Shown in pieces: positions 6,428 through 12,289 of a DNA stretch of 64,000 nucleotides (position 1 is its first letter; the number at the start of each line of letters is the position of its first letter). This DNA comes from Nanobdellota archaeon (GTDB lineage: Archaea; Nanobdellota; Nanobdellia; Pacearchaeales; GW2011-AR1): NCBI GenBank assembly GCA_018830525.1, contig JAHJSH010000029.1, forward strand, positions 41,526 to 105,525, given 5' to 3'. The position numbers and the translations under genes are program-made. The notes under the pieces were generated by a model. It had not been told where the DNA came from. It did no database searches and saw only the letters and a program-made list of their open reading frames with translations.

Positions 6428-6820
6428 CTAGAATCGTTCAATATCACTAGATTTTTGTACTTCAGGTTCTGCTGCACCTTTCTGAATATCAAAAACCTTT
6501 GAAGGTGTTGCGATAACAGTGTTCTCTCCGAATCCTGCAATCTTGCCTTCAAGGGCTTCAACAGTTTTCTTGATCTTCGAGATTGCTCGCTTTAATTCGA
6601 CAACATCCTTTGACTTCAAATGTTTGATATCGATAACTGCGATAGTATATCCTTCTCGGAGTGCATTTAGAATTGGATTTATGTCTTCGTATACCTTTAA
6701 AACAAAAGTTTTTATAAAAATCTTTGAGCTAGATTTTTCTTGTTCTAAATCAATCTCAATGAAATCTGGAGATAAATCTTCATCCCGCCCCATCATCCTT
6801 TTGAATCTGTCAAATACCAT
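6428..6820 (-). CDS. sepF: cell division protein SepF (DUF552)
   Basis: YEDINPILNALREGYTIAVIDIKHLKSKD ... GKIAGFGENTVIATP is typical SepF architecture. Confidence 0.7.
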   Translation of the reverse strand: MVFDRFKRMMGRDEDLSPDFIEIDLEQEKSSSKIFIKTFVLKVYEDINPILNALREGYTIAVIDIKHLKSKDVVELKRAISKIKKTVEALEGKIAGFGENTVIATPSKVFDIQKGAAEPEVQKSSDIERF

Positions 6821-8141: not shown

Positions 8142-8828
8142 TTAAGCTTTTGCTGCTACTTCTGGAGCTGCTACTGCAGGTGTTTCTCCTTCTTTCTTTG
8201 TCTCAGTTCCGGCTACAGCCGTTGCTGCCTTAGCTTCTTCTGCTGCAGCGGCTTCTGCTTCTTCAGCCTTCTTTATAGCTTCTTGTTCGGCTTCTACTCC
8301 CTTGAAGAACGTGTCTAATTCTTTCTTCTTTTCAGGGTTAACATCAGTTTTTTGTGCTTCAATTTCTTCCTTATACTTTCCTTCTGCAATTTCATCAAGA
8401 ATTTCCATAGGTTGCTTACTCTCGATTAAAACTCCAAGAGCCTGGCAAGTTCCTATAACAGATTTTACCGTAGAGATAAATTCATTTGAAAGCATGCTAT
8501 TGTGTTTAGCTTTTGAAACAGCGATTACTTGTTCAATTGCAAGATTTCCAACTTTCTGCTTTAATCTTGCACCCGAAGCTTTTTCGATTTTCAATTCTTT
8601 TTTGATTAATTCAGATGTTGGTGGAGATAGAACTTTGATTGAGAACTTTTTTGTCTTTGGATCAACTGTTAAATGGACTGGAACTGTGACTCCCTTGAAC
8701 TCGGATGTTGCTTCATTAACGTCAGAAATAACTTGTCCCATGTTTATTCCCATAGGGCCCAATTGCTGAGCAACTGCTGGACCTGGACTCATTTTTCCGC
8801 CTTCGACCAATAGTTTGATTAATACCAT
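8142..8828 (-). CDS. rpl11: ribosomal protein L11 with about 70-aa Ala/Glu-rich C-terminal extension
   Basis: LVEGGKMSPGPAVAQQLGPMGINMG ... VLSPPTSELIKK. Confidence 0.9.
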   Translation of the reverse strand: MVLIKLLVEGGKMSPGPAVAQQLGPMGINMGQVISDVNEATSEFKGVTVPVHLTVDPKTKKFSIKVLSPPTSELIKKELKIEKASGARLKQKVGNLAIEQVIAVSKAKHNSMLSNEFISTVKSVIGTCQALGVLIESKQPMEILDEIAEGKYKEEIEAQKTDVNPEKKKELDTFFKGVEAEQEAIKKAEEAEAAAAEEAKAATAVAGTETKKEGETPAVAAPEVAAKA

Positions 8829-8921: not shown

Positions 8922-9629
8922 CTACTCTTCTTCGAGTTCCTCCCTTCGAATTACTCTGATGTTATCTAACTTAACTGTAACTGGGATTGGAACTACCGCA
9001 CCAAGTAATGATACAACAACTTCTCCTTTTGCTTTGTCGATTCGGACAACTTTTGCTTTCTCATTCTTGAAAGGTTCGGAGATAATTTCGATGATATCAT
9101 TCTTCTCAATCTTGATGTCTGCTGCGACTGGCTCGAGCATTTGTTTTATTTCGTCGTATGTAACTGTCTTTCCGATTATTCCTTTAACATAAGGTAAATT
9201 GAAAACGGCTTCTTCAGCATGTTCTCTGTCTGGAGATTCTAAGAATACATATCCCCGAAGTCCGTGAGGTCTTGCTAAAGCATAAATCCCAACCTTCTTT
9301 TTCTTGACTTTGTCTGCGATCATCTCAAGTGCCTTATCTTCTTTGTTGGTTGTAACTTTTACTACATAAATAACATTCTCAAACTCTCTCTTTGGCTTAT
9401 TTGCCCTAGCTTCCTCACGAGCGATAGCTTTATCTTTTTCAGTAACTTCTTTTTCAATTTCTTTTTCTTCTTCAGCTAATTCTGCTGTAGATTCTTCATT
9501 TGCCTCTTCTTCAGGAATTAAAGATTGCTTTTTTGAGCCTTTAATCTTTGGTGCAAAAGATTCTTCAGCAGCGTTGCTATCATCCCCTTCTTCGAGGTAG
9601 TCAAATTCATCGTCATATCCGATTGCCAT
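8922..9629 (-). CDS. spt5: transcription elongation factor Spt5 (NusG) with about 85-aa acidic N-terminal extension
   Basis: NGN domain IYVVKVTTNKEDKALEMI and KOW domain KAKVVRIDKAKGEVVVSL; secE-spt5-rpl11 order. Confidence 0.85.
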   Translation of the reverse strand: MAIGYDDEFDYLEEGDDSNAAEESFAPKIKGSKKQSLIPEEEANEESTAELAEEEKEIEKEVTEKDKAIAREEARANKPKREFENVIYVVKVTTNKEDKALEMIADKVKKKKVGIYALARPHGLRGYVFLESPDREHAEEAVFNLPYVKGIIGKTVTYDEIKQMLEPVAADIKIEKNDIIEIISEPFKNEKAKVVRIDKAKGEVVVSLLGAVVPIPVTVKLDNIRVIRREELEEE

Positions 9630-9803: not shown

Positions 9804-9986
9804 TTAAAACACAGTCTTCATTGCGACAGAAATAGCGAATCCGACAGCCCCGATTATCAAAATACCAATTGCTGAAACTTTTGAGATTGTTTTGAACTCG
9901 GCCATGCTCGGTTTTTTAAGAAGTCTCCATACTCTCAAGTATTTGTGATATTGTGAAGATAATGCTCTTGTTAATTTTCCTGCCAT
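9804..9986 (-). CDS. secE: preprotein translocase SecE (Sec61 gamma)
   Basis: 60 aa with a single C-terminal TM; lies between ftsZ and spt5. Confidence 0.7.
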   Translation of the reverse strand: MAGKLTRALSSQYHKYLRVWRLLKKPSMAEFKTISKVSAIGILIIGAVGFAISVAMKTVF

Positions 9987-10057: not shown

Positions 10058-12289
10058 TTATTCCTCAAAGAATTCTATTCCGAGTTCTCCTTCCATGTCT
10101 TTTCTTCGAGCTTCTTCGATAGGTAATCGTTCTCCTGAAATCTGGGGAGATTTTACTCCGGTGATGATTACCATAACCTTCAGGCTTTTTTCCATGTCTT
10201 TTGAGATTTGGGCTCCAGAGATTAGTTTTGCGTCCGGAGAGAGTTGTTCTCCAATCTTCTGGATTATTTCCTTATATTCATCTAATGCTAAGTCGGTTCC
10301 TCCAATTACGTTCACTAGGGCGCCCCGTGCGTTCTTGATATCTACATCAAGTAGAGGATTATTGAGTGCTTTTTCTACAGCCTCCATTGCCCGGTTGGTT
10401 GAGTCTGATTCTCCCATCCCAATTAATGATACCCCCCCATTCGCCATGACAGCTTTGATATCCGCAAAATCTAGGTTAACTAACCCTGAATTTGTCACCA
10501 ACTCAGTTATTCCTTTTACAGCATTAGTTAGGATTTCGTCTGCAACCCTGAACGCAGTAGGTAATGGTAAGTCTGGTGCTAAGTCTAATAGTTTGTCATT
10601 AGGAATTACAATTAATGTGTCTACGATTCCTTCCATTCGTTCTAGACCTTCCATTGCGTTCTCGATCCTTTTTGCTCCTTCGACTGTGAATGGTAATGTC
10701 ACGACCCCGATAACTAACGCGCCTTGTTTTTTTGCAATTTCTGCTACGACTGGTGCTGCGCCGGTACCCGTATTATGAACTACAAACCCTTCTGCAATAA
10801 AATTGTGGCTTTTATCGACCGTTATATCGTAAACTCCTTCGTCTCCTAATTTTTTGGTGGAGGTTATTCTATTGAATCCGAAGTTTTCAAATATTTCGTG
10901 TTTTTTTCTGCTTCTATATTTATACATAAAGCTTAAACCATTTCTTGTTTTTGGATGGGGTAATTCTTCAAGTAATTCATGGGTTTTGTATATACAAAGA
11001 TTCCACGCAGTGAAATCTTTGGCCATTTTTGAATTTGGTGCTTTGATTGATCTTGTTCTTGATGATACATTGCAAGTTCTAAGCCCGATTTCATCGCATA
11101 GTATTTTGAGTTGTTTGATTAATTTTTCGCTTGACATTTCGAATCTTATTTCTTTTTTTGGAAGACCTGATTTCCCTTTTTGAGTCAGATAGTGACCATC
11201 TGCATCGGCTAAACCAATAATAAATGCCTTCTTTTGTTCTTTTGGTAAGTTGAATACCCAATTCGGAATTTCTTTTTTATTGGCTGGGTGATTTAATCCT
11301 ATTTTGTCAAGAAACTCATAGGCTTTTTTTGAATTGCCATATAGCCAATTTGCAGAGGGAGTGGTTTTCATTTTTATGTTAAAATATTTTTCTATTAGTT
11401 TTATATAATAATTATTTTGTTTCTTGTTTATCGAAGGAGAAAAGTAAATTTTCCATGAGTTTTTTGTTTTACTTATCCAGCCATCCCCCATAAGAAAACC
11501 GAATAGTTTACAAAAGTCTTCATCGCTTTCTCCTAGAGGGATATTTATGGGAGTGCCTTCGATTAAGACATCTCTTAATATAATTACTAAGTCCTCTTTC
11601 TTTAGATTTTTTGCTTGGACCCACTCTAGTCCGAATTTTGAAAAACGGTTACTGCTTAATTTATTTAGTGGTTTAACTTTTAGGAATGGGTGGTCAAATG
11701 AAGCATTGAGTGTTCTATTTTTGGTTTTTATTTCATATACTTTTTTGATGCCGGTTTTCATAGAGGCTATTACTTTTCTTTTTACGAGTTTGTTTTTATA
11801 AAATGTAAATACTTCTTCTCCTTTTTTTATTGAGGAAATTTTTTTGGGACCTTTTATAGTTGAGACTAAAGAGTCCCCCCTTAGACATCCACCACCAAGA
11901 CCACAAGTCACAAAAACTAAATCGGAATTTGATAATTTCTTTTTTATCTCTTGTTGTTGTTCCTTCGCTGCTTCTGCTCCGATTCGTGGATTTGAACCTG
12001 CACCAAGACCTTTAGAAAGTTCTCGTCCGATTAAGATTTTTTGGTCGGCGTTTGTATAAAGAAGGTCTTGTGCGTCGGTATTTATCGCGATAATTTCTCC
12101 ACCCTTGATTCCAACTTCTCGCATTCTGGAAGTTGTGTTTCCTCCAGCACCACCAACACCTACCACTTTTATTCGCGCAGATTGTTTTCTTAGAATTTCC
12201 TCAAGTTCTCTATCAATCTCAGAATTTCCACTGCCCTGCGAAATATGTTGAACCTCAGTCATATGGTTCTCTCTTAATATATCCTCCAT
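10058..12289 (-). CDS. ftsZ: cell division GTPase FtsZ interrupted by an intein
   Basis: N-extein ...KVVGVGGAGGNT...VFVTCGLGGG and C-extein TGTGAAPVVAEIAKK...VIPNDKLL... rejoin into a normal-length FtsZ of about 371 aa. Confidence 0.9.
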   Translation of the reverse strand: MEDILRENHMTEVQHISQGSGNSEIDRELEEILRKQSARIKVVGVGGAGGNTTSRMREVGIKGGEIIAINTDAQDLLYTNADQKILIGRELSKGLGAGSNPRIGAEAAKEQQQEIKKKLSNSDLVFVTCGLGGGCLRGDSLVSTIKGPKKISSIKKGEEVFTFYKNKLVKRKVIASMKTGIKKVYEIKTKNRTLNASFDHPFLKVKPLNKLSSNRFSKFGLEWVQAKNLKKEDLVIILRDVLIEGTPINIPLGESDEDFCKLFGFLMGDGWISKTKNSWKIYFSPSINKKQNNYYIKLIEKYFNIKMKTTPSANWLYGNSKKAYEFLDKIGLNHPANKKEIPNWVFNLPKEQKKAFIIGLADADGHYLTQKGKSGLPKKEIRFEMSSEKLIKQLKILCDEIGLRTCNVSSRTRSIKAPNSKMAKDFTAWNLCIYKTHELLEELPHPKTRNGLSFMYKYRSRKKHEIFENFGFNRITSTKKLGDEGVYDITVDKSHNFIAEGFVVHNTGTGAAPVVAEIAKKQGALVIGVVTLPFTVEGAKRIENAMEGLERMEGIVDTLIVIPNDKLLDLAPDLPLPTAFRVADEILTNAVKGITELVTNSGLVNLDFADIKAVMANGGVSLIGMGESDSTNRAMEAVEKALNNPLLDVDIKNARGALVNVIGGTDLALDEYKEIIQKIGEQLSPDAKLISGAQISKDMEKSLKVMVIITGVKSPQISGERLPIEEARRKDMEGELGIEFFEE
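10772..11887 (-). mobile_element. intein (372 aa) with LAGLIDADG homing-endonuclease domain
   Basis: Starts at Cys (CLRGDSLV), ends VVHN followed by Thr; motifs LFGFLMGDGWI and IIGLADADGHY. Confidence 0.85.

Follow-up and report, generated by a model that had tools for sequence, protein, structure and literature searches.

The 64-kb stretch of DNA analysed in this study (hereafter the window, meaning the whole stretch) carries a complete ftsZ gene at 10058..12289 (-), with an open reading frame (ORF) of 743 amino acids (aa) plus stop, whose product is interrupted by an intein with a LAGLIDADG homing-endonuclease domain; all parts of the gene described below lie on the same (-) strand. The precursor consists of an N-extein (11888..12289, aa 1-134), which ends in ...VFVTCGLGGG and covers the Tubulin/FtsZ GTPase domain from its beginning to the third signature Gly (its first half), an intein of 372 aa (10772..11887, precursor aa 135-506, from Cys1 to Asn372), and a C-extein (10058..10771, aa 507-743 plus stop), which opens with the +1 Thr (TGTGAAPVVAEI...) and holds the remainder of the GTPase domain, FtsZ_C and an archaeal C-terminal tail, ...ELGIEFFEE. 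The insert is located between G134 and T507, within the GGG/TGTG signature (here and below the slash marks an intein junction), and counting along the precursor from CLRGDSLV, which starts at aa 135, through FVVHN, which ends at aa 506, gives its 372 aa. An earlier description made from the letters of the DNA (below, the sequence-only reading) had proposed a 743-aa FtsZ ORF with a 372-aa insert at 10772..11887, and the coordinates match exactly. Pfam and NCBIfam agree on the host protein: Tubulin matched in two stretches (4.3e-41) and FtsZ_C once (4e-32), both above their gathering scores, and the ftsZ equivalog model TIGR00065 scored 399.5 bits against a cutoff of 295.2 with the intein still in place.

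Removal of aa 135-506, which had been named beforehand as one of two tests of this assignment (the other being detection of the intein blocks, described below), restored FtsZ. The resulting 371-aa protein aligns without gaps, over residues 23-342, to residues 23-342 of FtsZ1 from Methanocaldococcus jannaschii (PDB 1w58/1fsz; E 2.7e-119), the alignment runs contiguously through the junction as ...FVTCGLGGGTGTGAAPVVAEI..., and the GLGGG-TGTG signature is intact only once the insert is taken out. Within the 64 kb, tblastn searches with the intein and with the extein found neither a second intein nor an FtsZ paralogue.

An error of assembly or binning, in which a 1116-bp block was misjoined into ftsZ from metagenomic reads, might in principle produce such a gene, and it would fit both the probable metagenomic origin of the window and the base composition, the guanine-cytosine (GC) content being 31.8% in the intein and 42.2% in the exteins (36.6% in the whole window), with a profile in 150-nt steps falling at both junctions. 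However, the insertion is exactly in frame, falls between two codons and shows canonical splice junctions, and the same architecture recurs with diverged sequences in more than 26 genomes assembled independently in different studies; we regard the chance of an artefact as negligible. The GC gap was also considered as proof of recent import and was rejected on the grounds that the intein is rich in Lys and Asn and that synonymous sites are saturated in comparison with its closest relative.

Splicing and endonuclease domains of the insert

The two ends of the insert make up the halves of a Hint splicing domain. The N-terminal half (intein aa 1 to ~105, 11573..11887) opens with block A, C1-L-R-G-D-S-L-V, and includes block B, A-S63-F-D-H66-P-F-L (11675..11707), placed by alignment to the Ssp DnaB intein, and the C-terminal half (10772..10912) holds blocks F and G, VYDITVDKSHNFIAEGFVVHN, and ends in His371-Asn372. 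Pfam Intein_splicing was matched at 7.5e-16 (58.7 bits, cutoff 35.8), the N-terminal model TIGR01445 (intein_Nterm) over precursor aa 135-203 at 28.5 bits (cutoff 24.5), and the C-terminal model TIGR01443 (intein_Cterm) over aa 486-507 at 37.2 bits (cutoff 15.6). The block A nucleophile, Cys135 of the precursor and Cys1 of the intein, is invariant in 21 homologues. In block B, S63-F-D-H66 corresponds column by column to T-A-N-H of the Ssp DnaB intein; its His is invariant, and Ser takes the place of Thr throughout the FtsZ inteins, with Thr found in the SufB-type relative L028. H371 and N372 are invariant across the aligned FtsZ inteins, and the +1 residue, Thr507, is the invariant Thr of GGGTGTG itself. 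All the splicing residues are thus invariant in the 21 aligned full-length FtsZ inteins, and shorter mini-inteins also match the C-terminal blocks of the insert.

The two Hint halves are separated by a LAGLIDADG homing-endonuclease domain (intein aa ~106-325, 10913..11572), whose approximate limits were taken from deletions in mini-inteins and from an AlphaFold2 (AF2) model, and which matched Pfam LAGLIDADG_3 at 2.8e-8 (34.4 bits, cutoff 22.5). Motif 1, KLFGFLMGDGWISK (intein aa 127-140, 11468..11509), and motif 2, AFIIGLADADGHYL (aa 221-234, 11186..11227), contain LFGFLMGD135G and IIGLADAD230G, respectively, and both retain the catalytic Asp (Asp135 and Asp230), each of which is present in 20 of 21 aligned full-length FtsZ inteins; decay is visible in relatives, with Asp replaced by Asn in motif 1 of L024 and a deletion across motif 2 of L025. 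The sequence-only reading had put the insert between a Cys and an HN followed by Thr, had picked out SFDH, LFGFLMGDGWI and IIGLADADGHY as its motifs, and had proposed a search of Hint and LAGLIDADG domain models. Cys135, His-Asn and Thr507 were all found, the three motifs are present and conserved in 21 full-length homologues, and all the domain models pass their curated cutoffs.

The AF2 model of the insert, built from a 13-sequence alignment, reached a predicted local distance difference test score (pLDDT) of 87.4 and a predicted template modelling score (pTM) of 0.86. Foldseek against PDB ranked the TliVMA intein first (E 1.6e-22, template modelling (TM) score 0.70-0.72), followed by PhoVMA, PI-PfuI, PI-SceI and PI-PkoII, and also matched the Ssp DnaB mini-intein (TMt 0.76), which is the top PDB sequence match of the splicing blocks as well. 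Over residues 123-300 the secondary structure of the model follows the pseudo-dimeric alpha-beta-beta-alpha-beta-beta-alpha fold, the free LAGLIDADG enzymes I-DmoI and I-Tsp061I were matched with E ~1e-6 and TMt 0.56-0.67, and the model was also paired with the endonuclease domains of PI-PfuI and PI-SceI. Judged in silico, the sequence and the predicted fold of the insert are those of a class-1 intein and a monomeric LAGLIDADG endonuclease, and the agreement of motifs and domains is far beyond chance. The claim that a LAGLIDADG intein splits the FtsZ signature loop as GGG/TGTG is therefore borne out by the boundaries, the domain models and the fold match.

Distribution and movement of the intein

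When the spliced FtsZ was compared with its relatives, the 120 that scored best (79-93% identity, 359-389 aa) contained Tubulin and FtsZ_C only and had no intein. Together with two syntenic metagenomic contigs, L001 and L002, these uninterrupted genes are the intein-free alleles that the sequence-only reading had suggested looking for, and the intein is a minority allele in the group of its host. The FtsZ encoded by L001 and L002 (P0019, VTCGLGGGTGTGAAP) is 92% identical and uninterrupted; at the DNA level ...GGCGGCGGA runs straight into ACAGGAACA..., with GGA followed by ACA, and the archaeal L001 allele, a predicted target of the endonuclease, has GTAACATGCGGACTTGGCGGCGGA upstream and ACAGGAACAGGTGCCGCCCCAGTC downstream of the insertion point.

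With the intein by itself as query, about 14 other protein clusters came up that have a related insert in FtsZ, all with junctions of the form GGG/C at the start and HN/TG(T/S)G at the end, and a scan of GTDB (one genome per species) found 26 further genomes with an intein at the same site of FtsZ. Identity of the public FtsZ inteins to that of the window is 49-86%. The closest intein-bearing relative is L005, a Nanoarchaeota metagenome-assembled genome (KR11), with 86% identity in the intein and 92% in the C-extein; other carriers include L009, L013 (Aenigmatarchaeota), L006 (Staskawiczbacteria), L007 (Saccharibacteria) and L008 (Patescibacteria), all taxon labels being the depositors' own. 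By its sequence, the intein of the window is a member of an allele family spread over public genomes of DPANN archaea and bacteria of the candidate phyla radiation (CPR). Archaeal carriers bear the labels Nanoarchaeota, Woesearchaeota and Aenigmatarchaeota, and their FtsZ ends in ...ELGIEF. Bacterial carriers, labelled Staskawiczbacteria, Saccharibacteria or Patescibacteria, have ftsA immediately upstream in five of six cases and the tail ...EIPAFLRR wherever the C-terminus is present, and the two contigs examined more widely also encode peptidyl-tRNA hydrolase (Pth), S26 signal peptidase, HisRS, S21 and YbeY nearby. Carriers hold either full-length inteins or mini-inteins, many of them being mini-inteins that lack an endonuclease; at least nine mini-inteins (145-198 aa) differ in their deletion endpoints, which implies that the endonuclease was lost independently.

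One carrier, the 195-kb contig L014 (CAZPLB010000002.1), was deposited as 'uncultured Gammaproteobacteria bacterium' and encodes an intein-bearing bacterial FtsZ with ftsA upstream, which may reflect either a wrong label or an intein reaching beyond CPR. The best match to the L014 FtsZ (68%) is encoded by the Patescibacteria genome L019, the inteins of the two are sisters, and we have accordingly set the label aside as evidence of spread beyond CPR.

Three deposited intein-bearing FtsZ proteins (P0002 / L004:6481-8254, P0003 / L013, and P0008) start at 'MGGGC', with the N-extein cut off, and P0003 is named 'LAGLIDADG family homing endonuclease' and P0002 'hypothetical protein, partial'. The possibility that these are split genes was rejected for L004 and L013, where the ORF is continuous through a normal N-extein, and at both loci the 'MGGGC' start is a gene-call artefact. 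Another deposited relative, P0004 (475 aa), loses its frame close to its intein's C-terminal end through either a frameshift or an assembly error.

Comparison of the window with L005 showed that synonymous sites are saturated, with a proportion of synonymous differences (pS) of 0.70-0.75, and pS and pN (the nonsynonymous counterpart) are given in place of dN/dS since dS is saturated. pN was 0.047 for the exteins (pS 0.71), 0.073 for the Hint domain and, at a pS of 0.70, 0.077 for the endonuclease domain; the low pN against saturated pS indicates purifying selection on both domains of the intein.

Across the two domains of life the inteins are far more alike than their hosts, with 51-77% identity between inteins against 38-48% between C-exteins. 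The intein of the archaeal L009 is 72% identical to those of the bacterial L006 and L007, the C-exteins being 40-45% identical, and the archaeal P0006 and the bacterial P0010 share 77% in the intein and 42% in the C-extein. In a neighbour-joining tree of 21 full-length inteins (~370 columns, rooted with a SufB intein), the window falls in a clade with 100% bootstrap support that unites archaeal hosts (the window, L005 and L009) with bacterial hosts (L006, L007 and L008), and another two bacterial inteins, those of L014 and L019, which pair at 98%, branch from within the archaeal ones. These two bacterial placements imply at least two moves between the domains, the exact number being provisional as read from this tree, and the sequences point to one intein family that has passed from one of the two groups, DPANN archaea and CPR bacteria, to the other. 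The insertion site itself is shared: in all 27 alleles read, the upstream 9 nt are GGN GGN GGN and the downstream 12 nt are ACN GGN (A/T)(C/G)N GGN, a pattern by which the target is fixed at codon positions 1 and 2 in archaea and bacteria alike. LAGLIDADG enzymes tolerate changes at wobble positions.

Related inteins also occur in other proteins. In a Woesearchaeota protein (P0014), an intein with 31% identity lies in a thiamine pyrophosphate-dependent enzyme with the junction HN/TGIQ, and the weakest full-length matches, L028 and L032 (25-27% identity), have hosts that look like SufB by eye and the junction HN/SK. The nearest relatives outside FtsZ came from IMG/VR (L037:4368-6902, L038:92-2647 and L039:950-3523); they are full-length, carry a homologous LAGLIDADG domain and are 30-35% identical. 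The host of L037 is a phage terminase large subunit (Terminase_6C match), those of L038 and L039 appear by eye to be of the same kind, and JGI sample 3300025669 yielded both L038 and the syntenic contig without an intein, L001. Overall, relatives in IMG/VR that match over the whole length are 23-38% identical and reside in terminase, portal-like and ribonucleotide-reductase genes.

Predicted role of splicing and the gene neighbourhood

We consider it highly probable that the insert is a selfish class-1 intein with a two-motif LAGLIDADG homing endonuclease in an FtsZ1-type division protein, and that splicing is required for a working FtsZ. This reading builds on the identity and boundaries of the insert, its intact catalytic residues, its fold, its distribution and the purifying selection acting on it. 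By the standard four-step route of class-1 inteins, the ftsZ gene would be translated as a 743-aa precursor, in which an N-S acyl shift at Cys1 would be followed by transesterification, with the signature Thr (+1) attacking the thioester, then by cyclisation of Asn372 assisted by His371, which would release the intein, and finally by an O-N shift that would rebuild the G-T peptide bond of the signature. Splicing would thus yield FtsZ in its normal form of 371 aa together with the freed endonuclease of 372 aa, and the latter would cut intein-free ftsZ at the DNA coding for the signature, whereupon repair would copy the intein in. The signature (T4) loop touches the GTP phosphates in FtsZ and tubulin, as known from the M. 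jannaschii FtsZ structure. The 372 residues within the GTP pocket would be expected to block nucleotide binding and assembly, and because the precursor is expected to be inactive, splicing would be obligatory for division. That FtsZ can bind GTP only after splicing, as the sequence-only reading had put it, is in our opinion a reasonable inference from the position of the T4 loop.

The further suggestion that cell division is tied to intein activity as a regulatory link did not find support, given that the intein is optional in close relatives, patchy, decaying and mobile between domains. In its explicit form, this suggestion would make the intein a domesticated conditional switch, in which redox state, temperature, nucleotide or host contact would gate splicing so as to time the supply of active FtsZ and couple division to a signal. 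Conditional splicing has been documented for some other inteins, the insertion in the GTP-binding loop should leave the unspliced protein inactive, the intein and its endonuclease are under purifying selection, and a Cys in the N-extein five residues before Cys1 (TCGLGGG/C) makes a disulfide trap conceivable. On the other hand, none of the 120 nearest relatives of this FtsZ needs the intein, the Cys at -5 is missing in four of six bacterial hosts (L008, L014, L019 and P0010, which have TAGMGGG or TAGFGGG; L006 and L007 retain TCGLGGG), no sensor is indicated by the sequence, and the intein is scattered over distant lineages, crosses domains and has repeatedly lost its endonuclease. A patchy, cross-domain distribution with decaying endonucleases is what a selfish homing element leaves behind, not a conserved regulator, and we hold the switch to be improbable. 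Slightly less probable again is the specific proposal that conditional splicing of FtsZ, by redox through Cys1 and the extein Cys or by a host cue, acts as a post-translational checkpoint that licenses assembly of the Z-ring in the ultra-small cells of DPANN and CPR, which depend on hosts; if so, retention of the intein in both groups would reflect checkpoint use rather than pure parasitism.

Several points weigh against the selfish-intein reading and should be set beside it. Splicing, endonuclease activity and inactivity of the precursor are inferred from conserved residues, the predicted fold and selection, and block B carries Ser where most inteins carry Thr. An intein-free second ftsZ may exist outside the visible 64 kb of the genome. 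As for mobility, the tree is distance-based with low support at some deep nodes (6-62%), every cross-domain pair is saturated at synonymous sites, so that no transfer seen is recent, and the IMG/VR scan for a viral vector found no such intein in FtsZ and no candidate shuttle.

The genes around ftsZ are archaeal and include those for an FKBP-type isomerase, Spt5/NusG, L11, L37ae, prefoldin, SepF, diphthamide synthase, a wyosine radical-SAM enzyme and AglB/STT3. Their arrangement (FKBP, ftsZ, small ORF, spt5, L11 ... sepF) is shared with L001 and L002, the contigs that lack the intein, and the FKBP / ftsZ / small ORF / spt5 / L11 cluster is broadly conserved in archaea. The sepF gene (6428-6820 (-), Pfam SepF 4.3e-10) has the same orientation as ftsZ, lies downstream of it at a distance of 3.2 kb and is separated from it by genes including L11, tRNA-Pro, L37ae and prefoldin, in an order also kept in the intein-free relatives; SepF is the FtsZ anchor in archaea.

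This neighbourhood also bears on whether the ftsZ copy is alive. If the insert no longer spliced, the gene would be a pseudogene and division would proceed through another gene, and two observations could be taken that way, namely that only 64 kb of the genome is visible for a second FtsZ and that the relative P0004 appears frameshifted within its intein. However, the 743-codon frame is intact, none of the splicing residues is lost and all are invariant across homologues, purifying selection on the exteins is very strong (the pN of 0.047 against pS of 0.71 given above), and the conserved neighbourhood is identical to that of intein-free relatives. A dead insertion is accordingly very unlikely, and a working gene that carries a selfish intein is the reading we retain.

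The nearest FtsZ relatives that bear names are labelled Pacearchaeota, Nanoarchaeota or 'archaeon', and, as far as these sequences tell, the host is a DPANN archaeon of the group with Pacearchaeota/Nanoarchaeota labels. Some further features of the locus were noted. Between ftsZ and spt5 lies a 60-aa ORF (9804-9986 (-)) with one hydrophobic helix and without a Pfam match, a gene of 60 aa occupies the corresponding place in L001 and L002, and its position is the one which we take to be that of SecE/Sec61-gamma in archaeal ftsZ-secE-nusG clusters. The next two genes, at 8142-8828 (-) and 8922-9629 (-), encode L11 and Spt5/NusG; L11 has a C-terminal tail of ~90 aa beyond its Pfam domains, first Lys/Glu-rich and then Ala/Glu-rich, and Spt5/NusG has an acidic N-terminal extension of ~85 aa. 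Their homologues in L001 and L002 are likewise long (203-236 aa), and the extensions seem to be typical of the lineage.

Novelty and comparison with known inteins

No paper on a native FtsZ intein was found in full-text literature searches for FtsZ, DPANN and CPR inteins, the matches being affinity or purification tags, optogenetics and unrelated work. FtsZ is absent from the main text and the top-15 host tables of the intein census (PMC4760082), the supplements and the InBase registry lying outside this check, and neither tubulin nor FtsZ is named in the paper on the Anaeramoeba intein. The sequence-only reading was not aware of common reports of FtsZ as a host of inteins, and this agrees with these searches, which gave only tag uses of inteins with FtsZ and a census text without it. 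Intein-bearing FtsZ sequences are nevertheless public in dozens of DPANN and CPR genomes, unremarked and in some cases misnamed. What is new is the host and its fold (FtsZ, of the tubulin superfamily) and the site (the signature motif); the element itself is a standard endonuclease-bearing class-1 intein.

With this family, FtsZ and the tubulin/FtsZ fold join the proteins invaded by inteins, and the rule by which inteins settle in the nucleotide-binding loops that vary least now reaches beyond P-loop NTPases. Because intein similarity far exceeds extein similarity across domains, the family is a clean marker of gene flow between two ultra-small radiations, DPANN and CPR, and FtsZ inteins offer a natural test of how much degeneracy a LAGLIDADG target allows. 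The misnamed genes and those cut at the N-extein are an annotation hazard, since they can make FtsZ look absent or truncated in surveys of division machinery. A splice-dead precursor might also become a tool for conditional control of FtsZ.

Among known systems, the best structural matches are the VMA inteins TliVMA and PhoVMA (7qsu, 7qss, 7qst) and PI-SceI (1vde, 1lws), with E values from 1.6e-22 to 1e-13 and TM scores of 0.55-0.72; 7qsu is also the best PDB sequence match among endonuclease-bearing inteins. Like the FtsZ intein, they have a LAGLIDADG endonuclease with two motifs set between the halves of a Hint domain, have Cys1 and a terminal His-Asn, and reside in a nucleotide-binding host. 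They differ in that their identity to the FtsZ intein is only 13-20%, their host is a P-loop ATPase whereas that of the FtsZ intein is a GTPase of the tubulin/FtsZ fold, and their splicing (for PI-SceI, DNA cleavage too) has been demonstrated, whereas both activities are predicted for the FtsZ intein. The phage terminase inteins from IMG/VR (L037-L039) are closer in sequence, with 30-35% identity over all 372 aa including the endonuclease domain and with shared block sequences ending in ...SHNFIAEGF(V/I)(V/T)HN followed by T, but their host protein and insertion site are others, and at this distance they would not be its direct source.

The closest parallel in the choice of site is provided by the P-loop inteins. 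According to the main text of the census, those of DnaB, MCM, RFC and VMA lie in glycine-rich phosphate-binding loops (Novikova et al. 2015, PMC4760082). Inteins such as DnaB-b, MCM-a and those of other NTPases resemble the FtsZ intein in being inserted in the most conserved glycine-rich phosphate-binding loop of an essential NTP-hydrolysing host; the loop invaded by the FtsZ intein is, however, the tubulin signature GGGTGTG, which belongs to a different fold. In both cases, insertion in the most conserved loop of the host gives a homing target that is nearly invariant and makes precise splicing obligatory.

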